Shown piece after piece: positions 7,349-56,243 of a stretch of 64,000 bases of DNA. The position numbers were made by a program, and so were the translations under genes. The notes beneath the pieces are model-generated. The model had not been told where the DNA came from. It did no database searches and saw nothing but the letters and a program-made list of their open reading frames with translations. Positions within the stretch are counted from its first letter, which is position 1. Each line of letters opens with the position of its first letter. The stretch comes from Minutocellus sp. GHC0000111 (taxonomy: Eukaryota): NCBI GenBank assembly GCA_977018835.1, contig OZ361259.1:1612001-1676000 (forward strand), written 5' to 3'.

Positions 7349-10171
7349 TTAAACTCCCTCCACATCCGCGCTGTACGACTCGTCATCGCCAAAAGCATCC
7401 TCCGACGGATCAGGCATGAAGCCTCCGTTGCGTACAGAAGCATCACGAACAGCTGCTACGGCCGCTGCAGCTGGATGTGCCGACGCCGTTGTGACCAGCT
7501 GAGCTGAACTTCCCCGCTTCTTTTGGGCATCCCACACCATACCCAATTCTGACAACTTCAACGCCTTCTCATTCGTCATCGGACTCTTCTTGCCCTGCTT
7601 CATCATACGGTACTGGTTGCGCTGGGAGTGAACCCAGTAGCCAAGACCAGGGAAGTGCTGGGGAACGCAGGCGTGGCCGTGGGTATTCTTAAAGGTCACG
7701 AGCTCCTGGTAACGCTCCTCCCAGGTCTTTCGCGGTGCCTTGATGGCACCCTTCCGCTTGCCACCAACGAAAATGAAACCAAGATTGTTCAAGTCGTTGT
7801 ACCGCTCGTCGGTCAGGCTGGAAGGCTTGCCATCGCAACGCTTGCGGTACTCCTCGCGCTGCGAAGAAACGAACCAACCGAGATCAGGATCACTGACCGG
7901 AATCTTGAGATGGCCGTGGCGGTTCTTGTACTCGCGAAGCTGATTCATGCGATCGGACCAGCTGGTGTAGTCGGCACGCTGGCGGAATTGGAAGCCAATG
8001 TCGTTGAGGAGCATGAGGCGGGAGGCCGTCAAGAGCGATTCCTTGTTCTCCTTGAGCTTCTTGTACTCCCGTCGCTGTCCGATGACCCACTTGATAAGCT
8101 CGGTGTGCGGCGGGGTGGTGGAGACGTTGCAGTTGCCATTGTCCCTCTTGTACTGCTCCAGCTCGGCGAACATGGCGTTCCAGTGCTCATCCTCGGCACC
8201 CTTGTTGACCATCTTGCGCTTCGTTGAGGTAAAGCCGATGGCCGTAAGCTGCTCGATCTGAGCCGCGGTAATACCAGGAACACGCTGACCATCCTGATAC
8301 TTGCGGTACTTGTCTCGCATCTTGGCGGCCCACTTGCCTAGCAGAGCATGGTCCATGGGGACGGCGACAGAACCGTCGTTGTCCTCCTTGAACTTCTTGA
8401 GCTGCTGCATCCGTTCGTCAAAGGTGTAATGGACAAACTCGTGGCCGGCCTCCTCCAACAGACGCTTCTTCTCGTCGGTCAACCGCCCGACCGAGTTGGA
8501 CTTCATGGCCCGACCCTCCTTGAGATGACGGTACGCCATGTTCTGCTCGTTCATCCAAAGACGAAGCTCTTGGTTGACCTTGTCGTCACGGGGGACGATG
8601 GTGGTACCATGAGCCTCCTTGTACGCCAAAAGCTTGGCATACATATCCTGCCACTCCTTGCGAGGCTTGTAGTTGGCTCGAACGGATGGAGCCGGTGCGG
8701 CGGGGGATGTAATGACGGATCCGTCGGGGGCAAAGGTCGGAAAAGCCACACCTTCCGTACCGGCATTAGTATTCATTCCGGTAAAATCAAATCCAATGCT
8801 CGTCAAGCGATCAATCTTTTCCTGCGTCATCTTGAACGTCTCCCCGGCCTGCAGCGCACGGTACTCGGTGCGTTGATCCGAGATCCATCGACGCAATTTG
8901 CGGCTGGCATCGTCCTCACCCGTTACCAGAAAGTTGCCCGCCGTGGCATGGTGTTGCTGCAACGAGGCGAACTGTGCCTCCCACTGCTTGTAGGGTTTGC
9001 GGGGCTGCGTTTCGACGCGTTTGCGCGTGCCCTTCTTCTTCTTGCTGGAGCGGCTGCCACTACTGGAAGCGGCTGCGGCAGCAACAGCAACCTCCTCGTC
9101 GTCATCGGCGGCACGCTTGCGAATGGTCTGTGGCAGCTTGGGGGCACCCTCCAAGGTCATGACGTTGACCTCGCCTTCGGAAGCGAATCGGGCGGCATCC
9201 CCGAGGTCGTTGAATCCACGGAGGAGGTACTGCGCACCCACAAAGTTGTAGTTGTCGGCAATGTGCTTCTGGGCGTCGGCATACGATAGGAAGACGGCCC
9301 CGGCCTCCTGGTTGGACGTCGAGGCGGCCCGGACGGCGAAGAACTTGCCCGCGGGAGGCTGCGCGGCGGCGGCAGCAGCGGCTTCGGCGGTGGCGTCGGC
9401 TGCAGCTGCGGCTGTGACAGTACCGGGCAGAGGAGGTGGGTCGTCACCCTCCATGGCCATGGGCACGGGATCTCCGAGAGGCGATCCGTCGAGATTGTCA
9501 CTGTCCATGTTTATGGCGCTGTTATTGAGCTGGTAGGGAAGCGTTCCTGACTTGTGAGCAGCAAGAAGGTGGTGATTCGCCCAACTGCTAGAGGTATACC
9601 CTGATGGATGATGCGCTTGCCCTAAACCAAGTCCAAATGGATAGCCCGATGACGAAGGATAACCGAGGGGCCGCGATTGATTCTGATAATGAGGCGGGTA
9701 GGGCTGCAGAGGTTGACCAGAATTGATCCGATACTGAAGTTGAGCCTGAGGTTGAAGCTGACCCTGAGCTTGTCCCTGAGCTTGACCTGGTACTGGCGCA
9801 GAAGCTCCTAACGCAGGATGACGGAACAGAGGGGGACGGCCGTGGACTTGGTAACAGAGCTGCTGCAATGCCAACGATGCGGCCAACTGCTGCTGCTGCT
9901 GAGAGACTCGAGACTCTGCTGCTCCTGCAAGAACCGAGGTAGACGAATCCGATGGGTTGGCGATATGGGGCGGTGCCAGTCGATATAGTCCAGCGGTGCT
10001 ACTATTATCAACACCTGCACTTGCACCTGCAGTATCTAATATTTCTACCGACGACGAAGGATGCCGAGCAGCTGGAACGACAGGCTCAACTTGAGTTGTT
10101 GTGTTCTCAACCTCCTCTCGAGATTCCTCCTGCTTCACTACTTGCTTCTGGGCCGAGTTGGAAAGCGACAC
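7349..10171 (-). CDS. Helicase-associated (HA) repeat protein with six repeats and an RNase H1 N-terminal/viroplasmin-like domain
   Basis: Six repeats of W/F..(F/Y)..L..(Y/F)K...G...VP....L..W...QR..Y......L..IGF; start or 5' exon structure uncertain. Confidence 0.85.
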   Translation of the reverse strand: MSLSNSAQKQVVKQEESREEVENTTTQVEPVVPAARHPSSSVEILDTAGASAGVDNSSTAGLYRLAPPHIANPSDSSTSVLAGAAESRVSQQQQQLAASLALQQLCYQVHGRPPLFRHPALGASAPVPGQAQGQAQGQLQPQAQLQYRINSGQPLQPYPPHYQNQSRPLGYPSSSGYPFGLGLGQAHHPSGYTSSSWANHHLLAAHKSGTLPYQLNNSAINMDSDNLDGSPLGDPVPMAMEGDDPPPLPGTVTAAAAADATAEAAAAAAAQPPAGKFFAVRAASTSNQEAGAVFLSYADAQKHIADNYNFVGAQYLLRGFNDLGDAARFASEGEVNVMTLEGAPKLPQTIRKRAADDDEEVAVAAAAASSSGSRSSKKKKGTRKRVETQPRKPYKQWEAQFASLQQHHATAGNFLVTGEDDASRKLRRWISDQRTEYRALQAGETFKMTQEKIDRLTSIGFDFTGMNTNAGTEGVAFPTFAPDGSVITSPAAPAPSVRANYKPRKEWQDMYAKLLAYKEAHGTTIVPRDDKVNQELRLWMNEQNMAYRHLKEGRAMKSNSVGRLTDEKKRLLEEAGHEFVHYTFDERMQQLKKFKEDNDGSVAVPMDHALLGKWAAKMRDKYRKYQDGQRVPGITAAQIEQLTAIGFTSTKRKMVNKGAEDEHWNAMFAELEQYKRDNGNCNVSTTPPHTELIKWVIGQRREYKKLKENKESLLTASRLMLLNDIGFQFRQRADYTSWSDRMNQLREYKNRHGHLKIPVSDPDLGWFVSSQREEYRKRCDGKPSSLTDERYNDLNNLGFIFVGGKRKGAIKAPRKTWEERYQELVTFKNTHGHACVPQHFPGLGYWVHSQRNQYRMMKQGKKSPMTNEKALKLSELGMVWDAQKKRGSSAQLVTTASAHPAAAAVAAVRDASVRNGGFMPDPSEDAFGDDESYSADVEGV

Positions 10172-20936: not shown

Positions 20937-21009
20937 ATGTCTCGCGTGGTATGCATCGCCGGTGTACTGGCTCTGCTCGCCCTCATAATCGGCCTATCTG
21001 TGGGCTTAA
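20937..21009 (+). pseudogene. Severed 5' end (signal anchor) of the M16 peptidase gene
   Basis: MSRVVCIAGVLALLALIIGLSVGL joins in frame across the TTAA to TRRNNS at 25466. Confidence 0.8.
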
Positions 21010-21133
21010 GAGGGCGCTGTCCATAATTTTCCCCGTTTTTAATCCCCCTTATTCTTATTTCTTATGACGAGCGAAGCATGACAAAAACTCGACCCCACCA
21101 TGAGAATCGCCGCTCTGCCCCCTCTTCATTACG

Positions 21134-22363
21134 ATGAAGCGCAGCGCTGATAACAGTGCCGGCCCGGCCCACAACGCAGATACGCGGTTGCGGAAACTCA
21201 AGACAGATAACTCCGGTCGCCCGATTTTGCCTGTTGACAAGAAGAAAGAGAAGGCGGAGGACAAAGCGAAAGACGCCGTTACCGAGATACTGGAGGGCCT
21301 CGCCGTCACGTTGGAGAACGACCCGAACGGACAAGGACGAGAATTATGGAACAATCCCGGCGTCGGCCATGCACTTCAACATCTTGTCAAAGCAGTCGAG
21401 GCTCGCGCTGATAAGTATCATGTTCGGGATGATATTGATGTCGCTGCTGAGCGGCCCGGCCTCGTAGTTACCAACCTGTCCGTGGCTGATGTGAAGTTGA
21501 GGCTGACGGTCGGCATCGTCGATCAATTGCAAGATCCCATGTTTGACGCCGGACCTGAATTCTTCCCTATATTTCAACTTCATGGGAAACGGATCGATAT
21601 TGGATCGGCTCTTGCTGCGCACGGCCGACCTTTCAACACCACATCGCTTACTTTGCTTGATGGAAGCGGAAAGCTTATCGTCGCTCGTGTTGCCCTGACA
21701 ATTACCGAAAAGGCCCGAAGTCTACAACAGGGCCATGTGATCAAATTGACAAAGTTCCACCGATGGCATGTGGCTCCATATGATGACATACACTCTACTG
21801 CTGGGATTGGACTAGTTGATTTTGATATTGTTGGAATGGGCCAACTTCTGCAGGTAGATGGTGGGCCATCAGCAGCGATCAGATCGGACACGGATGCTCT
21901 TGTTGCGGCCGTTTGTGAGGAAGCCGACGATGATCCGACGGCAGCGCCGGAGGCAGACACATTCGGTAATTGGGACGAGACCAGAGAGAGGCCGCCAATA
22001 CCCCCTGCTTGCTGCACTGCCGCCAACCGAAGCTGCTCAATGTACGGCACACTCTTCTTTCAGAAATGCGTCTGCGAAGAAATGCTGGTGCCGACGGAGG
22101 AGGACCTGGAGGATATCGCTGACAAATACTACGCAACCACCATGCCAGTCGAAGCCATGGCAAATAATTTGAAGAGGAACATGCTGTATTGGTACTATGC
22201 AACTGAGGTGTATCATGTGAGAGGTTGGCTTGATCGGAAGCCCTTGCCAACCTGTCTAGTCTTTTGCATTAGGTTCATTTATCCAAATGATAAAGGTGAA
22301 CGATATGTTGGATTCATCCCTGGTCATCAAGATGAAGAGGAAGAAGAAGAGGAAAATGCATAA
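21134..22363 (+). CDS. Transposon accessory protein: KolX/P2X7-ballast-like C-terminus with a putative OB-fold
   Basis: CC....SC......CVCE followed by NLKRNMLYWYYA...GWLDRKPLPTCLVFCIRFIYP..GERYVGF. Confidence 0.7.
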   Translation: MKRSADNSAGPAHNADTRLRKLKTDNSGRPILPVDKKKEKAEDKAKDAVTEILEGLAVTLENDPNGQGRELWNNPGVGHALQHLVKAVEARADKYHVRDDIDVAAERPGLVVTNLSVADVKLRLTVGIVDQLQDPMFDAGPEFFPIFQLHGKRIDIGSALAAHGRPFNTTSLTLLDGSGKLIVARVALTITEKARSLQQGHVIKLTKFHRWHVAPYDDIHSTAGIGLVDFDIVGMGQLLQVDGGPSAAIRSDTDALVAAVCEEADDDPTAAPEADTFGNWDETRERPPIPPACCTAANRSCSMYGTLFFQKCVCEEMLVPTEEDLEDIADKYYATTMPVEAMANNLKRNMLYWYYATEVYHVRGWLDRKPLPTCLVFCIRFIYPNDKGERYVGFIPGHQDEEEEEEENA

Positions 22364-22467
22364 TCATTACCTCAACACATGTAGATAACAAGAATGTGCG
22401 TAGCACGTGAGTAACAGCACACAATAAATCCATTTTTATTTACAGTGATAAAATATTTTACACGTGT

Positions 22468-24996
22468 TTACAAGCTGCCATTTTCTCTCAGTATCGCCGG
22501 CATCCAAGAGCTAACATCATTTGCCGATACACCGAAGTTTGTCTTAGCTTTCTTATTATTTCTTGCAGATTTCTTGTTGCTGCCTGGGCTTCTGCGCTTC
22601 TTTCCGGCGTAAACGACAACGTCGTCAGCATCGTCGCATTGACATTCAGCCCGAGTGTGGCCAAGCTGCTTGCATTTCTGACACTGCTGGTCAATCTTCT
22701 TCTTGCGGCCAGGCTTTGCTGGTTTCGCCTTACCAGCAGCTAGGGCCCTGTTCTTCTTGTACACATAGTCCTTGTCGTCTTTCTCGCTTCTGTTTCGCAA
22801 GGCTGCTCGAAGGCGCTTGCTGTCGCTCTTGCTCTTTTTGTACTCATCGGTGCGCTTACGCGCAAGGTCGCCCTCGAGCTTCCGGTCAATTGCATCGAAT
22901 CCATCTTTTCGGGTAGGAGAATCCCTCGATCCCAACTTTCCAATAACTCGCTCATTGAATTCCGTACCCAGTGACTTGTGGCCAGCGGCTCTACTTGTTG
23001 CATTTGGGTAGGCGTCTGAAGCAGTCAAATTCGGCCTTTTCCCCATCGTGAACTTCGTCACCATCCCGTTGAGCTGTTCGACGCCGGTGGTAGATTCCTT
23101 CTTGCAGTTGGAGTCGGCAGTATTCTTGTTGATTCTCTTGGTTATTTCAAGCGTCATCTTGCGAATCGTGTCGTCACTAATCTCCAATATGTCGCCATCG
23201 AATTGATTCCCCGAGCTCCATTCCTCATCGAGCTTGCCATCACTCCAATCAGGATGAGCAATGCTGAGGCGAATCCAATCACACGTGTTGGTGGTGCAAA
23301 AAGTGTGAATGCCACATTGGTGACGAACGACGGACTGGAGTTCTTTCTGAAGGAGGGCCAGATGACTTTGTTTTTCCTCCTCGGACACAGCACCATCGGG
23401 CTGATCGAGAACGCTGTGCTTGTACCGATCAGTAATCTTCGAAATGTCCTGTTTCATCCGATTGATGCGTGGTCGGGGGATGGCATTAAAATTTTCAACT
23501 CCTTTGCATACTTTTCGAAAGCCTGAGTCAATTGAATTGCTCAGATGATTAAAGTCACGGCAAAGCTCAACACCAGAAGCCAACTCATCACCTACTATGT
23601 CTTCCTGAGCGGCTGCTGCCCTAGCAATGCCTTTGCTATCGCCATCGGCAACGTGCTTCTCAACGAAAAGAGGACACGCCTGCACGCTTCCTTCATCGTC
23701 GACCAGAAGATTCCGTCCAACATTCTCGGCCAGATGCTCCTCTGCCACACCGGGGGAGCAGGAAGAGTTGCGATAGCAGAAGCCATCATGGTCGTACAGG
23801 GCCAGTGTCTCATCCTTGCTCATGTTTTTGAGCTCACTCGGCGTCATTGGATTGCCGGCTTCCCGCCTCTCCCTCAATCTTGCATTGCAGGCTCTCACGC
23901 AATAGTGGCAGCTTGCCTGAGAGATTCCCTTGTCAACAACAAGGCCAGTTTCCTTGTCTACGGCAAACACCGCTGCAGCAGAGCCAGTGTAGCAATGGCC
24001 GTAGTCGCGTTTGAGGGCGCTGCCGTCTTGGGCCACCGTAACCACCGCCGCCGTGTGCATCTCGCCGCCTTGTTCAAACTCAACAGTCTTGCTGCTAGCG
24101 GCATGTGCTTTTGCCCTATTCTCGTCAATGATTTCATCAGCTGCTTCAATAGCCGCTGCTCTGCATTTCTTTTCCACCTGTCGGGCATTCTTTTCGGTCG
24201 GATGGACGATGTCGGCCTTCGTGCAGAAATTCATGAAGCGACTTGCGTGCATGGCCTCATCTTCCGCTGCCTCCATCAGCTCCAAGTTCATTCCAGCCTG
24301 ACTTCTAGAATGCTTTCTGCCGGGGCACACAACTTCTGACCTCTGGCCGATCCAAGTGCAAAAAGAAAAAGGTTGGTTGCATCTGTCGCATCGCCATTCA
24401 AATGCAACGCCGAATCCACGCCGAACTGGCTCGGCCGAGAGATGCAGATTGCCGCACGATCGGTGGAGACTCTGCACGAAATCATGCAGCTGCTTCATCT
24501 CAACCACAATTCTTTTGCCGTTGAGCTGCACTCCGGTGATGTTGGGACGATCGGTGGCGTTGGCGGTGGGAGTAGATGACCGACCGCCCGAAGAATTCTT
24601 GTCGGAACAATGTTTCAGCATCGCGTTGAGATGGGGCCCATGCTTTTCATCGTCCTGGAAGTGATTTTCAGGTGTGGTCGGCAGTGATCGCTTGCCATTG
24701 CGTTGAGAGCGTGGGCTGGCGTTATCGGCCATTCTGGAGAAGCGGCAGAAGGGCTTTGCAACGTCAAGGCCTGATGTTTTCTCTGGACGTCGTCGTTGGA
24801 TGTTGACCTCGTGTCGTGTTGGGACGTGTTGAAGAGATGATCGAACAAGAGAGATCTCTAAGCTCGGCGACACGCCACCGCGCATCAAGATGCGGACAAG
24901 CTCATCAATAGTGTAGTAAGTACATCTGACGTCGTCTGGGAATGAGAGCAAGAGTGAGAGGATTGCCTCCTTGGCGTTAGCACGTGATGTTTCCAT
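22468..24996 (-). CDS. DDE transposase (Kolobok/Mutator-like) with C-terminal zinc knuckle
   Basis: VTVAQDGS (D1), CxxC, HVADGDSK (D2), RDFNH, TTGVEQLNG (E), CQKCKQLGHTRAEC. Confidence 0.85.
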   Translation of the reverse strand: METSRANAKEAILSLLLSFPDDVRCTYYTIDELVRILMRGGVSPSLEISLVRSSLQHVPTRHEVNIQRRRPEKTSGLDVAKPFCRFSRMADNASPRSQRNGKRSLPTTPENHFQDDEKHGPHLNAMLKHCSDKNSSGGRSSTPTANATDRPNITGVQLNGKRIVVEMKQLHDFVQSLHRSCGNLHLSAEPVRRGFGVAFEWRCDRCNQPFSFCTWIGQRSEVVCPGRKHSRSQAGMNLELMEAAEDEAMHASRFMNFCTKADIVHPTEKNARQVEKKCRAAAIEAADEIIDENRAKAHAASSKTVEFEQGGEMHTAAVVTVAQDGSALKRDYGHCYTGSAAAVFAVDKETGLVVDKGISQASCHYCVRACNARLRERREAGNPMTPSELKNMSKDETLALYDHDGFCYRNSSCSPGVAEEHLAENVGRNLLVDDEGSVQACPLFVEKHVADGDSKGIARAAAAQEDIVGDELASGVELCRDFNHLSNSIDSGFRKVCKGVENFNAIPRPRINRMKQDISKITDRYKHSVLDQPDGAVSEEEKQSHLALLQKELQSVVRHQCGIHTFCTTNTCDWIRLSIAHPDWSDGKLDEEWSSGNQFDGDILEISDDTIRKMTLEITKRINKNTADSNCKKESTTGVEQLNGMVTKFTMGKRPNLTASDAYPNATSRAAGHKSLGTEFNERVIGKLGSRDSPTRKDGFDAIDRKLEGDLARKRTDEYKKSKSDSKRLRAALRNRSEKDDKDYVYKKNRALAAGKAKPAKPGRKKKIDQQCQKCKQLGHTRAECQCDDADDVVVYAGKKRRSPGSNKKSARNNKKAKTNFGVSANDVSSWMPAILRENGSL

Positions 24997-25465
24997 GGTT
25001 GTTTTTTTTGTTTTGTGTCGGTTCTGGCGCAAGATGCGCTTTTCGATGAGAACCTTACAAAAAGAACCCCAAATGAGGGAGACGTGCAAAAATACCCCAA
25101 ACAAATATCCCCTTACCTCCCAACAGCAAAACTTCAAGATATCTTCCCACCAGCACCACCAATGCTGGTTATGCGTCGGCCGAGACTAATTTCGGTCGAT
25201 CCGACGATGACGTGCACGTCGACTGTTGTGTTTCTGAGGGAGAGTTGATTCATCGAAGTTCCTCTGAACCAAGTGTTCCTGGAGGGATTTCCGACTTAAT
25301 GCTGAAAGGAACGTCGATGACTCTTCGCCACTGTGGAGAGCGGCGGCCTTCGATGAGGAGCCCATTGTCACGTTGGAGTGCTAACTTTGGCGATGGTGCG
25401 AAGAAAAAACGGCACAAAACACGCTTTTTGGGGGCTTCCTAAAAGTTATGGACAGCGCCCTCTTA

Positions 25466-28453
25466 ACGAGACGCAATAATTCGCCTTCTTCTTCAAGTTC
25501 GGCACAAAACGCTCAGGGCCATCCCGACCTTCGTGGCAAGTGGCCTTTTGAACTAAGTGACATCCCAAAAGATGATCGAGTTTTTTACGGTCAACTTGAC
25601 AATGGGCTGCGATACATGCTCCTGCCCAACGGTGAGCTCCCCGGCCGTCTTTCGGTGCGCATGCATATCGATGTGGGTAGTATTCAGGAGGATGACGATC
25701 AGAAGGGCGTGGCGCACATGCTGGAACATCTCGTCTTTACCGGCACAGAGAACTATCCGGAACTACCAGAGTTGGATTACACAGTCCAGCGACTGGGCGC
25801 ACATAACAACGCCTACACGTCCTTCGAGGAGACTGTCTACGATGTCGACCTGCCCAACACAGAGGAGGACACCGTGAACACCATCTTTGCCATACTACGG
25901 GACATGGCCGATAGGGCACTCCTCACGGAAGAAAAGGTGGAAATCGAGCGCGGAATCGTGCTGTCAGAGGAACGATCGGGGGACAGTGTGGAATGGCAAA
26001 TTATATTGGATCAGCTCGAGTTCCTCCTGCCAGATCATCGGCTGGCCCAGCGCATTCCCATTGGTGATCGTGATGTGATCAAGACAGTTCTTAGGCAGCG
26101 CATCAAGGACTTTTATGATGAGTTTTATGTACCGGAGCACATGACGATTGTTGTGGTTGGCGAAATGATGACATTTGAGATGGAGAAATTGGTGCAGGAT
26201 TACTTTGGCGACATGGAACAGCCTGCGGTCGTCGGTGAGAAGCATCCAGACATGGGAACCATCCCGAAGGGACACGGATTCCGAGTTTCGGCCATGTCCG
26301 AGAAGGAGGTTGTCGATGATGACTTGTGGCTCACGACCATCAAGCCGTGGGTGGTCAAGGTCGACTCGAGAGCTTATCGGACAGAGCATTTGCCGCTGGC
26401 TTTGGCCAACTTTATCGTGGGTGATCGCTTTGATATATTGTCGCGTGTTGAAGGAACCCCCATCAAGGGTGGATATGCCGGACGAGACAATTTCATGCAC
26501 TATTTGGATTGGGGTGACCTCGTCCTTGTTGCCAAGCATGGTCGGTGGGAGGAAGCTGTTAGTATCCTCGAGCAAGAAACCAGGCGCGCTGTGGAGCATG
26601 GATTCACAAAGTTTGAACTGAGAGATGTCAAGGCAAGGATCTTGTCTTACTACGAAGACATGGTGCTTATGAAGGATAGCCGCGAATCGTCGAGTCTGTC
26701 CTGGGACTTAATCAATACCATTAATGGCCTGGGTGTGTTTGCGACACCTGAAACAGATTTAGAGGTACTGCAAGAGAGCCTAGAGAAGATCACGCTCGAT
26801 GTGATGAACAAGGAATTCCGTGACTACTGGAGTACAAAGGACCTCACCCTCTTTCTAACAACAAAGGAGGAGGTCAATGAGGAAATGGAGGCAAAGCTCA
26901 AACAACTATATCTTGATAGCCAAAAGGTCAAAGTTGAACCGCCTCCAGAACGAGAGCAGATTGTTTGGGGCTACACCAACTTTGGGCCCTCCGGCACTGT
27001 CGTAAGTGACACTATGATCGAAGACCTACAAATCCGACAGTTGACGCTCTCAAACAACATTCGGGTCAATATGAAGTATACAGATTTTGACTCGGAATAC
27101 CTATATGTTGTGGCCCGCTTTGGTACTGGAAAATTGGAGATGCCACCGAGACCGTGGTTCGATCAATTTGCAGAATACGTAATGGACTACGGCGGCCTCG
27201 GGAAGCACAGCTACGAAGAAGTCGATAAGATCTTTGCTGATAATTCCGTCTGGGTTGGTTTTTGGGTAAATGGCGATGACTTTGACGTATCTACCGAGAT
27301 TATCGCGGACGATTTGCTTCCCGCTTTACAACTCATGGTAGCTAGCATAACGGATCCAGGCTACCGAGAGGAAGCTGTCCGTGAATACAAGAATGATATT
27401 TCTGCCGACATGAACCGGCTCCGCCATCGCCTCGGAGGAGCGATGCAGTATGTCGAAGAGTTTCTGTGGGGCAATGATCCTAGATTTGGCGTGCCGACGG
27501 AAGAAGAGTTCTTGGCATTTACTGCCGATGATGTGAAGGCTTGGCTTGACGATCATCTTTCAAGTAGCTACATTGAGCTGAGCTTGGTTGGAGACTTTGA
27601 TTTGGATGACGCTGTACCTGATATTCTTTCCACATTTGGCGCCCTCCCCGAGAGGGATGCCGTTCCGATTGTAGTGGGCGAGGAAGCAAGGGAAATAACG
27701 TTGCCGAGCACACCAACCCACCAAACATTCACCTATGAAAACTCACAGATTGACAAGGCGTCTTCGGTTGTAGCTTTTCCGATCCCACATATTGAGGAAA
27801 ACATGAGTGAGAATAGGCGAATGCAAATCCTCGCTGATGTCCTTAGCAATCGGCTTTATGATAGAATTCGTGAGGAATTGGGTGACTCTTAATCGCCATA
27901 TGCGATTGAGGAAGCAAGCCAAGTGTTCCGTCGGGGGGTCATCTATGCCGAGTCCGAAGGTGAATCCAGCGTTACCACGAAGACAAGTAAGCATATGATT
28001 GAGATTGCTCAGTTCATAGCCTCCACTTTAGACGACGATGAATTTTTGCGAGCCACGAAACTCAAGGAAACGGATCTTGCCGATTCATTGCTGGACAATA
28101 GCCATTGGCTGTATGGCGTAGTTTGCGATTGTCAAGAAAAGCCATTCAAGCTGGATTGGGCACGAGAGAGAGACGCTGACTATGCGGCCATTACATTGGA
28201 GGAGATTCGCTCACTTGCAGCACAGTTCCTCATTCCGTCGAATGCGCTGCGGATCGATGTGATGCCCGAGGGCACTGGAGGTGGTGCGCTTCAAGAAGAA
28301 GAGATTGATGATGGAACTGGAGTCAGAAGACTACTCCCTAGTCATCGTGCGAGGGGACTTGAGACAAAAGATGTGAAACGGAAGCAAGGTCGTAAAGAGA
28401 GAATGAAGGCCGAGCATCGTCGGGCGAGAAAGGCGGCAGCTGCGCTTATGTAG
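25466..28453 (+). pseudogene. M16 (insulinase/PqqL-like) zinc peptidase, disrupted by transposon insertion and a TAA at 27890-27892
   Basis: GQLDNGLRY, GVAHMLEHLVF (HxxEH), NAYTSFEETVY, IREELGDS*SPY with the frame continuing to 28453. Confidence 0.88.
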
Positions 28454-30632: not shown

Positions 30633-31446
30633 CTACACCAAAGCATCCAGATGCATTCCCTTCCTTACGAATTAGAGGCAAATCATTCGGAACACCGCTG
30701 AGATCCCAGCCACCATGTGTTTGGGGAGATGGCTTTGCCGGTTTGTGCTTGAACGCCGCCCTGGCACAGTCCGCTGCGGCGTCTTCCTCCTTGTCGTAGT
30801 GCCCGATGGAACGCAACTTGCCTTGGACCTTAATCTGCGCTTTCCACTTTTTCTTTTCCTTGTCATGACACACCCCGATGTACTTGGAGCTGCCTACCTT
30901 GGTGTTGGGTGTTGTCCGTGTAGGACGGCGAACTTTGCTGGTTCTTGAGAATGAGTGGCTGAGGTGGTGCGCCAGTTAGGTCGATAAAGCCAATGCCTTT
31001 TCGCTTTGCTGGCTTTGATAGTTCACAAACCTCTGGATGAGCGCGTTTCTTTCCCGCTATTGATGATCTGCCGTTCATGCTGGCATTCGTTGTAGCGCAT
31101 GCTTCTGCTTCAGCGTGAGGCGTTTTACTGTTAATACTACGGGCGTGTCACCGGTAAGCATAGGATTAGTAGAGAGATTAATGACTACTTGCTATTGGTG
31201 CCGCCATGTTGGCGGCGAAGGTTGCGATCCGATGGGATCGGCAGTTCAAGTTCAGGTATTGGTGTTATGTACTTTTAGTACAGATCCGGGTCGGATCAAC
31301 ATTTACCAGCACAAGAGTTTGCTTCATCACATTTTCTATCGTCGCCCTCATCCGTGTGAACTACCAAGCCTAGCATTGCAAAATCCTCGGTGTCGAGAAT
31401 TGCATAACCCTCGCCTACGTCATCAGTACTTGAATGCGCCATCATG
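30633..31446 (-). pseudogene. Degenerate inverted duplicate of the adjacent AP2-domain gene, truncated and interrupted by a solo LTR
   Basis: MAHSSTDDV..., ELSKPAKRKGIGFIDLTG.PPQPLILKNQ and DKEEDAAAD.ARAAFK match 31789-32430. Confidence 0.85.
31129..31301. mobile_element. Solo LTR (173 bp), probably from a Copia-type retrotransposon
   Basis: Begins TGTTAA and ends TCAACA; flanked by 5-bp direct repeat TTTAC (31124-31128, 31302-31306); absent from the paralogous site near 31921. Confidence 0.8.
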
Positions 31447-31788
31447 ATTTCCTTTGAACGTGCTGATTGCTGATCGGGTGGGTTCTGGTGCCCGGTGCTG
31501 GCCTTGCCGATCTCATGCCCATGGGTCTGTGGGTTGTTGTGTGTGGGCGGTGATGCGGTGCTGTTGGTCCCGCCCCAGCCGGTCAACCCCCTCCCTTCCT
31601 TTTGCGATTCTCCCCTTTTCAGCTATAATTTCCTTTCTACGCAGTCACAATCGACGACCGCACGTCGCCCGTACCTAGGTAGGCAGGCCTACACATTTTA
31701 CCGGCCTCCGGCCCTGTACTCGTTCAACCCAGAACCGAACCCACATGTGAACCCAACAGATCAGCACGTTTACAACAAATGGCTTGCC

Positions 31789-32775
31789 ATGGCGCATTCA
31801 TGTACTGATGACGTAGACGAGGGTTGTGCAAGTCTCGACGCTGAGGATTATGCCCTGCTAGGCTTGGTAGTTCTCACAGATCAGGGCGATAGACAGTGCG
31901 ATGCAGCGAATGCCTGTTCTCGTAAAACGCCTCACGCTGAAGCAGCAGCAGATACATGCACTACTTCAAGCACCAGAATAAACATCAGGGCATCAAGACC
32001 TGGGACGAAACGTGGCCTTCCGAATGGTTACGAGCTATCAAAGCCAGCAAAGCGAAGGGGCACCGGCTTTATTGACCTAACTGGTGTGCCGCCGCAGCCA
32101 CTCATTCTCAAGAATCAACTGAGTGCGACGTGCTACCAGGACAATTCCCGACGTCGGCCGATTGGAAAGGGTAGCTCCAAGTACACTGGAGCGTTTTATA
32201 AGAAAAAAATGCAAAAGTGGGAGGCTCGGATAATGGTTCAAGGTAAGGCGCGGTTTATTGGGTACTACGACAAGGAGGAAGACGCCGCAGCGGATTATGC
32301 CAGGGCGGCCTTCAAGTACAAGCCAAAGAAACAATCTCTTGACACCTATGGCGGCTGTGATCTCAGTGGTGTTCCGAACGATTTGCCGCTGATTCGAAAT
32401 GAAAGAAATGCAACTGGATACATTGGTGTAAAACCCAACAAGGGGCGCTTCACGGCATACATTGGCCGTACGAATAAAACCCTGGGTACATTCGATACTG
32501 CCGAGGAAGCCGCATTGATTTATGCAAGGGCCAAGTACTATTTGGAGCAAAGCGAGCTATCGAAGCCAAAAGACACTCCCTTCTTCGACCTGACTGGCGT
32601 ACCGCCGCAGCCACTCATTCTCAAGAATCAACTGAGTGCGACGTGCTACCAGGACAATTCCCGACGTCGACCGATTAGGGAGGGTAGTTCCAAGTACACC
32701 GGGGTATACTATGATCCTGTGGACTCGTACTTTATTGATAGTGCTGGCGACAAGGTCGACGGAGTTGCTGTATAA
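31789..32775 (+). CDS. AP2/ERF-domain DNA-binding protein (two AP2 domains plus a truncated third)
   Basis: SSKYTG...KWEARI....RFIGYYDKEEDAAADYARA; GYIGV....RFTAYI....LGTFDTAEEAALIYARA. Confidence 0.85.
   Translation: MAHSCTDDVDEGCASLDAEDYALLGLVVLTDQGDRQCDAANACSRKTPHAEAAADTCTTSSTRINIRASRPGTKRGLPNGYELSKPAKRRGTGFIDLTGVPPQPLILKNQLSATCYQDNSRRRPIGKGSSKYTGAFYKKKMQKWEARIMVQGKARFIGYYDKEEDAAADYARAAFKYKPKKQSLDTYGGCDLSGVPNDLPLIRNERNATGYIGVKPNKGRFTAYIGRTNKTLGTFDTAEEAALIYARAKYYLEQSELSKPKDTPFFDLTGVPPQPLILKNQLSATCYQDNSRRRPIREGSSKYTGVYYDPVDSYFIDSAGDKVDGVAV
32073..32702 (+). repeat. Internal ~120-bp direct repeat in the AP2 gene (about 32073-32190 and 32587-32702)
   Basis: Both units encode DLTGVPPQPLILKNQLSATCYQDNSRRRPI..GSSKYTG and are nearly identical at DNA level. 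Confidence 0.9.
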
Positions 32776-47499: not shown

Positions 47500-50062
47500 G
47501 CGACATACCTGGGTTTCGCACGACACACCGTCATACCCCTGAAAGCACTTGCAAACGCCACGCTCGGGGTCGCAGTTGCCGCGGCCACTATGGTGGTATC
47601 ACGAAACAAATTGAAGAGAAAAGTTAGCCAATCATTCAATCAATCAAAAACCATTTACAACCACCACCCCCGTATCTGCCCAAACCATACTCACCTGCAC
47701 TCCTCAACATAATTGATGACCTCCCAACAACTCTCCTCAGAAGGAGGAGTAAAGTGGAAGAGCTTGACCAGGCCGGCATTGTCGGCCCAGTTGGCGTCGG
47801 TACCGTCGCCATTGTTGCCAGCATCACCGAGAGCAGAGCCATCCCACTTGATGTTCTTGTCGAGAGTAATTTCGTAAATGTTGGCAAACTTCTTGAGGGT
47901 CGGATCACCGGTAACGTCAATGGGGATGGTAATGTCGACGGTGGAATCGGAAGCGAGAGGGAGCTTGGTCACCTTCTTGACCGTATAGATAACGTTGCCA
48001 GTGCCGTAGTTGACGGCAGTGGAATCAGCACAAGCGGACGAAAGAGCAGGGCCTCCGTGGAAGGCATTGACAGTACCAGCGCCCTCGCCCCAGCAGCCGT
48101 CCACCAAGAAGATCATATCGCCCTTCTGGACACAACGGTGGTTGCGATCACCACTGTCGGGGTTGTTATCGCACGAGGAATCAAACGAGGTGTAGAGCTT
48201 GTTGTCCCACTGGTTGAAGTAGCCAGTGATGCGAGTCGAGGAGGCTCCGCCGGCCCAATTGTCGGCAATCTCCTGCGCGGCCTCGTTGCCCCACCCGAGC
48301 TGGTGGACGACGCCAGTCGAAGTGTAGACATAGCTCTCGACGGCCTCGTCGCGAGTGTTGGCTCCATTGTTGAGATTGGCCACACGGAACTCCTTGCCAG
48401 GAGCAGCCGACTCATCAAAGAAGACCAGGTAGTACTCTCCGTAGGTAAACTTGTCATATCCAGCTGCCGTCTCGGTGGGAACCACCTTGATGGCATGGGG
48501 GAAGGCACCAATCATGTTGTACGTGGTAGGTCCAGCACCATCAGCCTCGACGACAAAGCCCTTGTCCCAGTTGGCCACGTCGACGTTGTTCTCGGGATCC
48601 CAATCGGAATCGCCAAGACAGCGCTTGAGGGTCTTGGCCTCGGCGGGGGTGAGGTCGCCGTCGGGTCCAGTCAGATACCCGAGCGATCCAGGACGGACGT
48701 CGACATTCCAGGAATCGTCGGCATCGCTGGAATCGGCCAGTACCTTGACGGTAAGGCCCTCGCAGCGGGTAGGGAAGTAGTCCTTGGCCTCGCCGTTGAC
48801 GGTGGTGGCAACGCCCATAGTGATCTCACCGTCGCCAAAGGGGTGGCCGGTACTGGCGTCGATGATGGTGGAACGCTTGCCATCCAAGTACTCGAGGATC
48901 TCAATCTCCTTGAGAAGACCCGGATTGCCGAGGAACTTGAGCTCGTACTCGATGCCACGGTTGGTATCCACAGCAGTCTGGGTGCACTCAATGTCGGGGA
49001 CGACGCCGTTTGGCAGAGCCTTGAAGGCGGCAACCACATAGTCGCAATGGTCGACGCCATCAATCACACCGGTGCCATCGAGAGGGAGAGGATCGGTGAT
49101 GCAGTCCTCGCCGTGGGTATCATAGAAAACGAGAGCATACTCTCCCGACAAAACACTGGGATTGGTCGTCTCGAAACGGACGGCAGTGTGAGTGACGCGA
49201 GCGGTGGCATCGTCGGTGTAAAGAGGGTCAATGTTGTGGAGGCACAAACGCTCGTGGCAGTCCGGTCCGCCGTAGCCGGGGTCGCACTTGCAAGCCATGG
49301 TAACGTCGTGATCCCACAGAGCGTAGCGGTTGCCACCGTCCTCCTCGGCCATGTCGGCAATACTCTCGCAGGTACCGTGGCCGGAGCACATGCCAATCAT
49401 GGGCGTGTGGTTGGGGCGGCCGGTGAAGGAACTCTTGTGACCCTTGGTGGCAAGGCCCTGGAGGTTGCTCTTGAGCTCGGTCTGGGTGGAGGGGTTGGGA
49501 TTGTGGACGGAGCCACGGGCACTGGGACAGGAGGCACGGTTGCAGGCGGCTCCGTCGTATCCGGGAAGGCACTCGCACATGCCGGTGAGGCGGTCGCAAA
49601 GGCCCTTGTTGGAGCACTCGGCATACTCGTGGGCGGTGTCGATGAGGGTGTTGCCGGCAGAATCGCTCATGTCCGGAAAGGCCTCAGTGACTCCGTGCGG
49701 ATACATGGTAGATCCCTCAATGACGAGGGTATCGAGGGAATCGATGGAATTGGAGCCATCCATATCGCCAAGGGGCGTGCTGACGTGCGCCTTGCCGAAG
49801 GGACATTGGCGAAGGCTGCAGTCGCTTCCGGTCCATCCAGGGTCGCCTGTTTTGTAGAGATGGAGAGGAGGAAGGGGATGGTTAGTACTGAGGTGGAAAG
49901 GTTAGCAGGTTGACGAGACAGGGGGAACAGGGAGAGGGACTACTTACAGTAACAGCTATCATGGCTCCCGCATACCCCATGTCCCCCGCAGCCATTCGGG
50001 CAATGAGCTTGAACGCCAGCAAGGCTGGCAACGACGAGGAGGGCAATGGCGGTGATACGCAT
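47500..50062 (-). CDS. EGF-like mastigoneme/Sig1-family protein; introns 49847-49947 and about 47589-47694; final exon not resolved
   Basis: Signal peptide plus HCPNGCGGHG; CPFGKAHVSTPLGD; AHEYAECSNKGLCDR; CSGHGTC; LWD....CKCDPGYGGPDC; ECSGRGNCD. Confidence 0.8.
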
Positions 50063-50328
50063 GGTACAAAGCAGATAGTTGGGTTGGGTTGGGGCCTCTT
50101 TCAGGGAGAAGTGACTGCTCGAACTGCTTGAAGGATCTTGCATCGACATCGACACACGTCAATCAATTCATTTTTGCTGATCGAATGAGTCGATTGGTTC
50201 ATTCATTCAAATTTGAAAAAAAAAATGATCTGCAGAGCAGCTCTCCTTTGTTCACAATTTTCAATATTGGAGTCCTCGTTCAGCAATACAACTGTATCTT
50301 TGCAACAATCTCCTTCCTTCTACCACCG

Positions 50329-53259
50329 ATGGATCTACAGGAGGAGCGTACTCCGCCTCCGCCCCCACCTCCACCGCTCAAAAGCGGTGATACCGACGAT
50401 GACATGGAGATGGAGTCCCCGACGGCCACCAACCTGTCGTCGTCGACGGCCTCGTTGACCGCCTTCTCGTCGTCGTCACCCTCGTCGTCGTCCTCATCGT
50501 CATCATCCAACGGCATCAGCCCCATGGAGATAGAGCTGGCCCAACCATCAGCATCACCACCACCACCGCCCACCGCCTTGGTCGTCGCCGAGCAGCCATC
50601 TTCGACGGCTCCGTTACCACCACCCGCTCCCATCACATTGGATATGGGTTCAGAAGAAGCCGCGAAGAATCTCATCCAATACCACTACTCACATCCCGAT
50701 GAGGCCGCCCAGCTCACCAAGAAGGTTGAATTGACCTCGTTCATCAAGGCCGAGATTGACCGGAAGACAGTTCATGTGCCAAGCTCTGAACGAAAAGCGA
50801 ACCAAGGCGCAACTATCGCGGAAACTCTCATTAGTCGACTTCCCATGCTCGTTGAAATATTCTCCACCGGCGTAAAAGCTTCGGAGTCGAATCGACAGTA
50901 CATTCGTGACGTGTACCATCGCATCGGTGACGGCAAGCCCGGTTTCGATGTTCATGCGCATCTCTTCTCCATGCTTGACATCCCGAAGCCCCAGTCCAAA
51001 AGAGAATACTTTCTTGAAAAGCTAGAACTCATTTCCCGGTACGTAGCACAGTGCGAGGCAAGAGGCGAGCCTTTCGACCGCCGTAATGTGACTTGGTGGG
51101 TTACTATCGGCAACGAAAAGCCAACGCAAGCTGTCCGAAAATTTTTGGACAATGCCTTTGCCGGTCAGTACGACGAAGATCTCGAATTCCAGAAGATTCT
51201 TCCTCAGCTCGAGGCGGTTCTGAATACCACCATCTCCAAACCCCTTCCCTTTGATGAGCTCCGCGCCGTCATTGACACAACCTACGCCAACCTCAAGTGC
51301 AAGGATCTTTCCATCCACCTCGCCAAGGTCCCCGAAATCCACAAGCGCGGATTCGGTGTCAGCATTACCTCGACCGACCCCAACTATCTGGCCCTCATGG
51401 ATACTACCGGCACCATCAAGATCAACGCCAAGATCAATGCGGTCTCAGAGCTTCTGTCGGGCATTCCTCTGAATCTTGTCACAGACGACGATAAGAGCGT
51501 CCTTTACTCCGTCGTCGCCATTCTGTTCCAAGAGCTGTGCATAGCCGAGGCCGACGGTACCAATCGCATGTTCGGTGCAGAGCTGAAACAGCTTACCGCC
51601 GACGTTCTCAGGAGACAAGACGAATATCTCAAGCGATTCGAGCACATCCCCCATGCTGACCGACATGCGCGGTTCCAGTGTGGAACCGATGGCGAGGGAC
51701 ATCACCCGATCCAAGTCACCGCGAGAGATCAAGATTCCATTACGCTCCGCGACTTCCTCACCAATATTGGTTATGCTCCCGCGGCCGCTCATTCCATGGC
51801 AAAGCTCAAGAAGGAGACCAATACGGGCAGGCTCATGCTCGCTATTAGAGCGGTGTACCACAAGGATAAGTGGATTTGTGAGGTTGGAAGCGCCGTGTCC
51901 ATGGTTCAGAATAAGGCCGGCTGGATGCGCGAGGGTCGGCGAACTTACAACTTCAGCAAGGAGGCTCAAATTCCACCGGAAACCATTGTTGTCACCCATC
52001 ACGAGAGAGTCCTAAATACCATCGAGGAGGCATCCCATTTTCACCTCAAGGCTCCCGGTGGCTTTCTCGACGCAACCAAGTGCCCACCTCCATTTGCTTC
52101 CGAGCAGAAACGTCCATCTTACCTCCCACCTCCGAAGAAGAACTCAAGGAAGACGAAGGCCGCCGGAGATGACTTGGCCGCTGCTACCAGTCGCAAGGAA
52201 ATCGAGGCAGCCCTGCAGGAGGTCCAAGAATCGGCTGATATCTCAGAAGAAGCCAAGGCTGTGCTTGCCGGGATGCTCAAGATGTCCGATCGTCTGTCTG
52301 TCCTCGAACAGAAGCAAAAGGACGATGCCGCCAAACCTGCTCCCAAGCCCAAGGTCCTGACCCTTCAGGATATCACCAATCTTGGCCGTGGTAATGCCAA
52401 TCCGGTGGCAGCATCGTCCAGTACCATCTATACCGTTGTGGCAGCGAATGACCAATCCATCGGTGCCAGTGGCGTCTCAACGAATAATGCCGCGTTTGGA
52501 GCAGCAGCGCATACATGTAGGAGAAGAGGTGAGCCGACTCAGCCACTTGTCGTATCTCAGGAAGACGAGAATGAAATTCTCCGAAAGAGAATCAACGATC
52601 TCGAGGAACAGTTGGAAAGGAAGGATCTTGCAACGGACGAATCACTCCAAGAAGAGCAGCAAAGCCACGAGAAGACCAAGATTGCGTTGACCGGTTTGAA
52701 GGATACCCACAAGAAGCTCCAGCAAGAGCGCAGAATTCTCACACCGCAGCAGAGGGCCGATATCGATCTCCAGGCTTCCAGACTCGCAGCATTTGACGCC
52801 AAGGAAAATGAGTGGGAGGCAGAGAGAGCAAAATGTGAGCGTCAACTGCAAAATGCCCAATATCTGTGGAAGACTGCCGAGAGAGAGCGAGACGCAGCCC
52901 GGAGCGAATGTCGAGAACTCGATGAAGAATTGTGCTGTCTTCGATCTTCTACAGCTTCTGCGGAGCCATCCAATCAACCAAGAATCAACAGCAGGTCTCA
53001 GATGATTGAGAATAGCTCTGTATTGCACGATCAGCAGAGCTCCGATGTGGATGGGGGATATGACCTTCTACCCCCGAATTGGGAGAAGCTCTTTTCAAAG
53101 AAAGCTGGTCGGCCCTACTACCGGTACTCCGATGGGACGAATGAGTTCAGCCAGTGGCACTTTCCCACGAATAGTGAGGTCGCGGATCCTACCACGGCGA
53201 TGGAACGGGTGAACAAGAATACATCAGAGGAACGGAGAAAGAGGCAGAGGATTGATTAG
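50329..53259 (+). CDS. Large hypothetical protein with coiled coil and C-terminal WW domain
   Basis: LPPNWEKLFSKKAGRPYY.....SQWHFP; heptad-rich region; Pro/Ser-rich N-terminus. Confidence 0.7.
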   Translation: MDLQEERTPPPPPPPPLKSGDTDDDMEMESPTATNLSSSTASLTAFSSSSPSSSSSSSSSNGISPMEIELAQPSASPPPPPTALVVAEQPSSTAPLPPPAPITLDMGSEEAAKNLIQYHYSHPDEAAQLTKKVELTSFIKAEIDRKTVHVPSSERKANQGATIAETLISRLPMLVEIFSTGVKASESNRQYIRDVYHRIGDGKPGFDVHAHLFSMLDIPKPQSKREYFLEKLELISRYVAQCEARGEPFDRRNVTWWVTIGNEKPTQAVRKFLDNAFAGQYDEDLEFQKILPQLEAVLNTTISKPLPFDELRAVIDTTYANLKCKDLSIHLAKVPEIHKRGFGVSITSTDPNYLALMDTTGTIKINAKINAVSELLSGIPLNLVTDDDKSVLYSVVAILFQELCIAEADGTNRMFGAELKQLTADVLRRQDEYLKRFEHIPHADRHARFQCGTDGEGHHPIQVTARDQDSITLRDFLTNIGYAPAAAHSMAKLKKETNTGRLMLAIRAVYHKDKWICEVGSAVSMVQNKAGWMREGRRTYNFSKEAQIPPETIVVTHHERVLNTIEEASHFHLKAPGGFLDATKCPPPFASEQKRPSYLPPPKKNSRKTKAAGDDLAAATSRKEIEAALQEVQESADISEEAKAVLAGMLKMSDRLSVLEQKQKDDAAKPAPKPKVLTLQDITNLGRGNANPVAASSSTIYTVVAANDQSIGASGVSTNNAAFGAAAHTCRRRGEPTQPLVVSQEDENEILRKRINDLEEQLERKDLATDESLQEEQQSHEKTKIALTGLKDTHKKLQQERRILTPQQRADIDLQASRLAAFDAKENEWEAERAKCERQLQNAQYLWKTAERERDAARSECRELDEELCCLRSSTASAEPSNQPRINSRSQMIENSSVLHDQQSSDVDGGYDLLPPNWEKLFSKKAGRPYYRYSDGTNEFSQWHFPTNSEVADPTTAMERVNKNTSEERRKRQRID

Positions 53260-55013: not shown

Positions 55014-56243
55014 ATGAAGCGCAGCGCTGATAATAGTGCCGGCCCGGCCCACAACGCAGATACGCGGTTGCGGAAACTCAAGACAGATAACTCCGGTCGC
55101 CCGATTTTGCCTGTTGACAAGAAGAAAGAGAAGGCGGAGGACAAAGCGAAAGACGCCGTTACCGAGATACTGGAGGGCCTCGCCGTCACGTTGGAGAACG
55201 ACCCGAACGGACAAGGACGAGAATTATGGAACAATCCCGGCGTCGGCCATGCACTTCAACATCTTGTCAAAGCAGTCGAGGCTCGCGCTGATAAGTATCA
55301 TGTTCGGGATGATATTGATGTCGCTGCTGAGCGGCCCGGCCTCGTAGTTACCAACCTGTCCGTGGCTGATGTGAAGTTGAGGCTGACGGTCGGCATCGTC
55401 GATCAATTGCAAGATCCCATGTTTGACGCCGGACCTGAATTCTTCCCTATATTTCAACTTCATGGGAAACGGATCGATATTGGATCGGCTCTTGCTGCGC
55501 ACGGCCGACCTTTCAACACCACATCGCTTACTTTGCTTGATGGAAGCGGAAAGCTTATCGTCGCTCGTGTTGCCCTGACAATTACCGAAAAGGCCCGAAG
55601 TCTACAACAGGGCCATGTGATCAAATTGACAAAGTTCCACCGATGGCATGTGGCTCCATATGATGACATACACTCTACTGCTGGGATTGGACTAGTTGAT
55701 TTTGATATTGTTGGAATGGGCCAACTTCTGCAGGTAGATGGTGGGCCATCAGCAGCGATCAGATCGGACACGGATGCTCTTGTTGCGGCCGTTTGTGAGG
55801 AAGCCGACGATGATCCGACGGCAGCGCCGGAGGCAGACACATTCGGTAATTGGGACGAGACCAGAGAGAGGCCGCCAATACCCCCTGCTTGCTGCACTGC
55901 CGCCAACCGAAGCTGCTCAATGTACGGCACACTCTTCTTTCAGAAATGCGTCTGCGAAGAAATGCTGGTGCCGACGGAGGAGGACCTGGAGGATATCGCT
56001 GACAAATACTACGCAACCACCATGCCAGTCGAAGCCATGGCAAATAATTTGAAGAGGAACATGCTGTATTGGTACTATGCAACTGAGGTGTATCATGTGA
56101 GAGGTTGGCTTGATCGGAAGCCCTTGCCAACCTGTCTAGTCTTTTGCATTAGGTTCATTTATCCAAATGATAAAGGTGAACGATATGTTGGATTCATCCC
56201 TGGTCATCAAGATGAAGAGGAAGAAGAAGAGGAAAATGCATAA
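55014..56243 (+). CDS. KolX/P2X7-ballast-like accessory protein (copy 2)
   Basis: Protein identical to that of 21134-22363. Confidence 0.7.
   Translation: MKRSADNSAGPAHNADTRLRKLKTDNSGRPILPVDKKKEKAEDKAKDAVTEILEGLAVTLENDPNGQGRELWNNPGVGHALQHLVKAVEARADKYHVRDDIDVAAERPGLVVTNLSVADVKLRLTVGIVDQLQDPMFDAGPEFFPIFQLHGKRIDIGSALAAHGRPFNTTSLTLLDGSGKLIVARVALTITEKARSLQQGHVIKLTKFHRWHVAPYDDIHSTAGIGLVDFDIVGMGQLLQVDGGPSAAIRSDTDALVAAVCEEADDDPTAAPEADTFGNWDETRERPPIPPACCTAANRSCSMYGTLFFQKCVCEEMLVPTEEDLEDIADKYYATTMPVEAMANNLKRNMLYWYYATEVYHVRGWLDRKPLPTCLVFCIRFIYPNDKGERYVGFIPGHQDEEEEEEENA

Follow-up and report, generated by a model that had tools for sequence, protein, structure and literature searches.

Repeated A:T to G:C transitions at TpA in the 5′ part of a Kolobok-type diatom transposon

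The window analysed here, a stretch of 64,000 nucleotides from contig OZ361259.1 of Minutocellus sp. GHC0000111 (positions 1,612,001 to 1,676,000 of the forward strand), is gene-dense eukaryotic DNA with a GC content of 52%. It holds two copies of a 4.46 kb element, which an initial annotation had correctly placed at an offset of 33880 from each other. The features discussed below are, in positions of the window:

21006–25466, unstranded: copy 1 of the Kolobok-type DNA transposon, with TTAA at each end and AG..CT termini inside the TTAA
54886–59345, unstranded: copy 2, 99.1% identical to copy 1, with unrelated flanks and TTAA at each end
21134–22363, plus strand: second ORF (409 aa, KolX-like), convergent to the transposase; 55014–56243 in copy 2
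22468–24996, minus strand: transposase ORF (842 aa), intact in both copies; 56348–58876 in copy 2; match to PF20700 (E = 6.6e-21)
24936–25116, minus strand: likely GT..AG intron of 181 nt in the transposase transcript
23502–23716, unstranded: 215 bp segment encoding transposase aa 428–498, present in both window copies and deleted in many other family copies
23594–25240, unstranded: hot zone of TA to TG/CA change, about 1.7 kb, covering the transposase 5′ half and upstream sequence; its left edge is soft
24909–24922, unstranded: 14 bp cluster in copy 2 with five A:T to G:C changes on both strands, in which all four TA steps are altered, plus one CA-context change

TTAA stands at all four ends of the two copies, and the inverted arms inside it measure 21 nt; counted with the TTAA, those of copy 1 measure 25 nt (21006–21030 and 25442–25466) and are 96% complementary. 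The passages on Kolobok elements in PMC9587614 describe a TTAA target duplication, RR..YY termini and a DDD/E transposase with a DxxH motif, add for the Kol0 type a second protein, KolX, that resembles the P2X7 ballast domain, and record Kolobok from the diatom Fragilariopsis. In the present element the TTAA duplication, the RR..YY termini and the terminal inverted repeats (TIRs) are all found. Its transposase carries the motifs QDGS (323), ADGDS (450), DFNH (481) and EQLNG (640), with DFNH between ADGDS and E640 as in a DDD/E enzyme with a C/DxxH motif, the catalytic roles of these residues being putative. Since the TTAA, the termini, the PF20700 transposase and a possibly P2X7-like second protein are the features given in those passages, the element is, on sequence grounds, a Kolobok-type DNA transposon in a diatom.

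The protein of the second ORF (ORF1) is identical in both copies. Its family profile matches P2X7 residues 541–593 (E = 0.0014), PF20478 is matched by 17 of 54 relatives and not by the window protein itself, and its predicted model matches RPA70N (E of about 1e-4), the fold search having listed OB folds only; the protein is predicted to consist of an OB fold before a P2X7-ballast-like C-terminus. A comparison with 50% cluster representatives gave 207 relatives at E values no higher than 0.001, and the ESM Atlas returned nothing for this protein. ORF1 was rejected as the source of the mutations described below, given its OB and ballast-like domains and the lack of any deaminase match.

The element is multi-copy, as its proteins form clusters of 170 and 71 members, 15 of which were listed in each case; the family comparison is one of proteins, in which synonymous changes are invisible. 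At the DNA level, two metagenome scans for loci of the element gave 58 and 569 pattern matches, none of them confirmed. The element is held by 20 runs, seven labelled sponge metagenome and four marine metagenome, labels hinting at a sponge-associated or benthic diatom host. Among the host genes of the window, one for cation efflux has diatoms as its labelled best homologues, the top one apparently from Extubocellulus (70% identity), and a 940 aa ORF at 7349–10171 contains six helicase-associated (HA) domains.

The likely intron was recognized from a joint of 24935 to 25117, found in one contig each of runs X1 and X5 with a short side of 28 letters, and absent from X8 and X15. X1 and X5 are RNA libraries that also contain DNA, and as the likely GT..AG joint was seen in these two runs only, the transposase unit is described as apparently transcribed. 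Splicing at this joint takes out the first ATG of the 842 aa ORF and leaves no in-frame ATG upstream; this is possibly a regulatory event giving a shorter transposase or none. The joint of the 215 bp deletion is present in all four runs, and in X8 it accounts for about half of the depth at the site; at the protein level the deletion is seen in four listed proteins of 428 aa that end at aa 427 and in two that start at aa 499. It takes out the likely second catalytic Asp and the DxxH motif, and its site is the left edge of the hot zone.

A search for related transposases gave five, and four outgroups were compared. P0006, P0007 and P0023 are mosaic-like when compared with the window transposase (22468–24996): over aa 1–140 P0006 is close to the window family, whereas further on it is at about 50%, and most of its differences from the other members of its own cluster lie in aa 1–140, suggesting that families have exchanged the right end. 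At 128, 304 and 427, where those members have Tyr, P0006 has His or Cys.

The two copies differ by 34 substitutions outside one variable T-run (25002–25012), 32 of them in the ungapped stretch 21006–25001 and the others at 25226 and 25425. A recount agrees with the earlier alignment by eye that 22 of the 34 are TA against CA or TG, or TG against CA. Twelve are of the first kind, 11 within 23750–24925 and one at 21154, and both copies carry derived states, copy 1 at seven and copy 2 at five of these sites. The second kind consists of five TG/CA doublets (ten substitutions) at 23806, 24248, 24611, 24662 and 24730. The reading of CTYYTI in one copy against CTHCAV in the other at 24909–24922 is exact.

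As many as 30 of the 32 ungapped substitutions fall within 23759–24922, and only two in the left 2.7 kb. TA-class sites differ at 16 of 29 positions in 23750–24925, against 2 of 81 for CG-class sites (Fisher p = 1e-9) and 1 of 92 for TA sites in 21010–23749 (p = 3e-11); by bin, the TA-class differences amount to 1/85 (21010–23500), then 3/14, 2/8 and 11/14 (24501–25000). TA observed/expected in the hot zones is 0.25 and 0.26, the lowest of 127 sliding windows (mean 0.56), and CA+TG observed/expected is 1.27–1.28. Within the zone, 79 CG sites are intact in both copies, and CG/TG differences between the copies number two (24154 and 24912). Across the family, diversity forms a plateau of 2.7–7.1 per 100 codons over aa 1–420 and is about 1 thereafter, with no clean decay from the promoter; a smooth gradient was not established, position and fraction mutated over 29 Tyr-class sites giving a rho of −0.33 (p = 0.08). 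Elsewhere in the window, TA observed/expected is low at 52001–53000 (0.33) and 50001–51000 (0.38), where CA+TG is not raised (1.11 and 1.16). These two low-TA segments fall inside a 1056 aa ORF (50089–53259) with no Pfam match and are probably explained by its codon usage.

The direction of change was read from the outgroup transposases, of which P0007 is the closest (87% identical), and from the other copies of the family. In the 17 family proteins compared (the two window copies, P0004, P0005 and 13 more listed from the cluster of 170), His and Cys both occur at nine codons; P0007 has Tyr (TAY) at all nine and never Arg (CGY), and Tyr is still present in some copy at seven of them. P0007 likewise has Tyr at 14 of the 16 codons polymorphic for Tyr, His and Cys, and at the six Met/Thr codons that it covers it has Ile four times, Lys once and Val once. 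All three fixed differences between the family and P0007 that involve Tyr go from Tyr to His or Cys, and transposase aa 1–460 contain 7, 9 and 9 Tyr residues in three copies versus 14–18 in four outgroups. To judge from the aligned proteins, the five doublets of the initial annotation all resolve to an ancestral TA: Tyr is found at aa 112 in five copies and four of four outgroups, at aa 129 in three of four outgroups and at aa 250 in four of four, and Ile at aa 89 in nine of 11 copies and at aa 397 in two copies and P0007. Both P0007 and P0006 read CTYYTI, as does copy 1, so that the CTHCAV of copy 2 is derived. The ancestral state in outgroups and other copies is thus TA, and not CG, CA or TG; with Tyr or Ile held by outgroups at the doublet sites and the TA state persisting in other copies, there is little doubt that the process is real and that it runs from TA to CA or TG, as had been proposed.

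The proposal had rested its polarity mainly on the AP2 duplicate, which lends it none. In the inverted AP2-domain paralogues (30634–32775; about 75% identity, the minus-strand one apparently frameshifted) TA-class sites differ at 15 of 24 positions and CG-class sites at 22 of 36, equally often, and this duplicate was rejected as evidence. A 116 bp internal direct repeat in the same region (32074–32189 and 32587–32702) has nine differences, three of them TA-linked, and one site (32087–32088) reads TG, TA and CA across three copies, a weak hint only.

Polarity that is neither circular nor dependent on an outgroup is provided by the second gene, whose common protein is identical on 22 contigs; against this near-invariant majority, P0031 stands out as a burst. 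P0031 has 27 changed residues, 25 of them TA-linked and the other two likewise A to G, with no transversion-type change. At TA sites where both outcomes are visible, 13 of 15 (about 87%) are changed, seven to CA and six to TG. Among the 14 listed ORF1 variants P0031 alone is saturated; the 13 others have three of 21 changes TA-linked, with no TA excess (p = 0.36). Further affected copies are P0186 (7/7) and P0188 (3/4), in which the outcomes differ at common sites, such as Tyr95 to His or Cys. Recurrence is also seen at the adjacent codons 129–130, which occur in five combinations (HC, CY, CC, HH and RC); repeated events, and not recombination, are needed to produce these.

Over transposase aa 1–500, the TA-context count is 45 of 66, a figure that is partly circular in that TA was assumed at variable sites. 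Off-target A to G changes, sorted by 5′ base, number 8/132 after C (one of the eight, V42A, is probably a TA doublet), 5/130 after A and 0/162 after G, C and A not being significantly different; amino-acid differences lying in segments that were frameshifted or aligned badly were left out of the counts. There appear to be two modes, rare whole-gene bursts, as in P0031, and chronic changes over about 23600–25240.

Decay of methylated CpG, or C to T change in the direction of RIP, starting from CG, CA or TG ancestors, was weighed against these data. The parts of PMC9998398 concerned with methylation describe diatom transposons as CG-methylated islands, TG/CA pairs can derive from CG, two CG/TG differences do separate the copies, and at aa 129 Arg is found in one copy. 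However, transitions affect none of the 26 CGN codons in aa 1–500, the CG sites of the zone are overwhelmingly intact, TA is depleted rather than enriched, P0007 has Tyr at every His/Cys site, and P0031 is polarized by its near-invariant majority. This explanation is refuted at the protein level and can be set aside with near certainty.

With regard to the further claim that the process is targeted to repeats, 39 of 76 variants in transposase aa 1–500 are TA-linked, compared with 6 of 93 in host genes (p = 3e-11; 6/20 in transposase aa 501–842). The host figure is a protein-level one, drawn from variants of five genes outside the element that are under purifying selection, 43 of the 93 coming from the 93–98% relatives of one gene. 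At that level transposon copies are affected and host genes spared, the latter lacking this spectrum; repetition is not supported as the trigger, since the equally repeated left half of the element is nearly untouched. The background mutation of Phaeodactylum, as given in the mutation spectrum of PMC6604790, is biased 2.21-fold from GC to AT, the opposite direction.

Sequencing or assembly error, for instance through modification-induced miscalls in long reads, would be a concern inasmuch as the family proteins come from megabase contigs of perhaps one or two assemblies and the P0031 burst from one record. It is nonetheless very improbable: contigs of X1, X5, X8 and X15, which come from four studies, show alternative states at the same sites and further doublets in the same zone (doublets at 24485, 24611, 24619, 24871 and 25215), and among the rows listed (of 132) 28 of 40 are TA/CA, TA/TG or doublet halves. 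These are the four runs examined of 24 listed, X1 and X5 being Illumina libraries and X8 and X15 having no library on record. One run contig spans 21031–23502 with two differences.

Taken together, the comparisons demonstrate a recurrent A:T to G:C change at TpA, in its direction, context, action on both strands, recurrence and near-saturating bursts in single copies. A pure A:T to G:C burst of this kind, near-saturating and on both strands of TpA, is as expected from the conversion of adenine to inosine, and targeted deamination of adenine, with targeted recruitment, is the cause that we consider rather probable. A host mutator would deaminate the adenine of TpA in the targeted DNA, and replication would then read G; the lesion would be inosine, made by an ADAT/TadA-type deaminase. 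To our knowledge ADAT2 is universal, so its presence in the genome would prove little. The mutator would be drawn to a particular piece of chromatin or transcript and not to repeated DNA as such, most often to the first 1.7 kb, at the 5′ end, of the transposase unit. As the hot zone is the 5′ part of a unit with a likely splice joint, we prefer a reading in which transcription or small RNA guides the recruitment; survival of master copies changed only in tolerant regions may be an alternative. Changes would build up over rounds of transposition, young copies inheriting some and gaining others.

An adenine-directed enzyme is what we infer; TA is palindromic, and an A to G change following T on one strand is a T to C change preceding A on its complement, so a thymine lesion would look alike. 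The damaged base might then be a thymine that is modified in silenced DNA, as hydroxymethyl- or formyl-uracil or by O4-methylation, and pairs with G; modified thymine does occur in the repeats of some protists. Diatoms also carry DNMT4 enzymes related to fungal RID, described as of unknown function in the relevant part of PMC9998398. On the other hand, nothing was found that points to a T-modifying enzyme, and a copy can be so nearly saturated only by a lesion that miscodes strongly, as inosine does; damage to thymine is therefore judged unlikely.

We regard as quite unlikely, too, an error-prone Y-family polymerase (Pol eta type, placing G opposite T) at work during patch or gap repair, such as would follow excision or the removal of methylated bases. 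A cut-and-paste element invites gap repair, the two-strand changes are clustered in 14 bp, and A to G at AA occurs too (5/130), in keeping with the WA preference of Pol eta, TA over AA. Polymerase error is, however, far less pure and dense than the burst in P0031, whose 27 changes are free of transversions and take in about 87% of the TA sites at which both outcomes are visible, and changes in CA context are no rarer than those in AA context. The off-target spectrum leans to a YA-preferring enzyme of TadA/ADAT type over a WA-preferring polymerase, TadA-derived editors being reported, in the sections of 10.1101/2025.05.14.653640 that concern sequence context, to prefer YA. Two other candidates were rejected: ADAR-type RNA editing, given a DNA transposon with no RNA intermediate and both strands changed within 14 bp, and a diversity-generating retroelement, given that only transitions are seen, on both strands, and that no template repeat was found.

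Deamination of adenine would serve as a genome defence through missense load alone. Against this role, the ORFs of the two copies are still open and their TIRs and four TTAA ends still present. Over all codon contexts, TA to TG or CA gives no stop-creating event, and the impossibility of stop codons would explain the open ORFs of heavily changed copies and the continued movement of the family.

A wider reading is possible, though doubtful: diatoms, and perhaps SAR protists broadly, may run a DNA adenine-deaminase defence that is recruited to the transcribed 5′ region of transposons, as AID is to immunoglobulin genes. Because such a defence could make no stops and would exhaust its own TpA targets, active transposons could survive it and end TA-poor, resistant and with diversified transposases. 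Its enzyme would then be a naturally occurring editor of DNA adenines specific to TpA, of interest, if true, to base editing. Repeat dating in diatoms would be misled by the process, since it raises GC and gives young copies an aged look. Dozens of near-identical copies in differing states offer a ready assay for the targeting trigger (transcription, small RNA or methylation) and for the enzyme search.

Among known systems, Kol0-type Kolobok elements share with the present one the TTAA duplication, the RR..YY termini, a DDD/E transposase with DxxH and, by its profile match, possibly a P2X7-ballast-like second protein. In contrast, the second protein of the present element has an additional predicted RPA70N-like OB fold, and the Kol0 passage of PMC9587614 names animals, while this element is from a diatom and is placed by these features.

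Fungal RIP changes C to T, adds TpA and easily produces stop codons. The diatom process is similar to it in that transposon copies are hypermutated by transitions at one dinucleotide, in bursts and on either strand. It differs in that TpA is lost and depleted, with a polarity of TA to CA/TG, and in that no stop is possible. Nor does it follow the duplication along the whole repeat (1/85 in 21010–23500 versus 11/14 in 24501–25000), and with an equally repeated left half nearly untouched, homology alone does not explain the targeting. Turnover of CG to TG or CA, the mark of 5mCpG decay, was not found either (2/81 sites; 0/26 CGN codons). The TadA editors and ADAT2/3 resemble the diatom process in A to G change with a preference for a 5′ pyrimidine, TA and CA over AA and GA (context data of 10.1101/2025.05.14.653640). 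The preference for TA is far stronger in the diatom element, whose enzyme is a candidate only; TadA editors are engineered, and DNA editing by ADAT2/3 has been reported in amphioxus and trypanosomes, as cited in the main text of Mettrop et al.

The process is neither RIP nor CpG decay and resembles that of Bigelowiella natans, in which TpA hypermutation of integrated viral DNA was measured de novo (Mettrop et al., preprint of 2026, bioRxiv 10.64898/2026.01.13.699255). The main text of that preprint proposes deamination of ADAT2 type and suspects an effect on transposons from TpA-poor DDE and RT genes; the TpA signature is therefore not unreported as a process. The word ‘diatom’ is absent from this main text, and no diatom report of TpA hypermutation was found in the literature searched, most subscription journals lying outside its reach. 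Both processes act locally and on both strands, changing A to G where T precedes and T to C where A follows, and that of B. natans runs against the AT bias of its genome, in which it is likened to the diatom element. The B. natans process is also episodic and confined to some lineages, to which the one saturated variant among the 14 listed for ORF1 may be a parallel. A:T to G:C change at TpA on both strands is found here (P0031, 25/27; copy pair, 22/34), as is the sparing of host genes, at the protein level only (6/93 versus 39/76). TA at 0.25–0.26 lies below the B. natans cut of 0.43, and CA+TG at 1.27–1.28 does not reach its 1.52, indices that may have been computed differently. The targets are not alike: in the rhizarian they are a single-copy, silent 186 kb NCLDV insert and a virophage region, with rates from mutation accumulation, whereas in the diatom they are high-copy, very young copies of a DNA transposon, likely with a spliced transcript, polarized across copies. 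The diatom case differs further in its sub-element hot zone and in a minority of CA- and AA-context changes, a point on which the supplements of the preprint may give further motif detail. Going by the literature found, the TpA mutational process, reported from one rhizarian alga, is thus extended to diatoms, and its targets, silent viral inserts in that alga, now include a transposon that is still moving, for which the main text of the preprint could only infer an effect.
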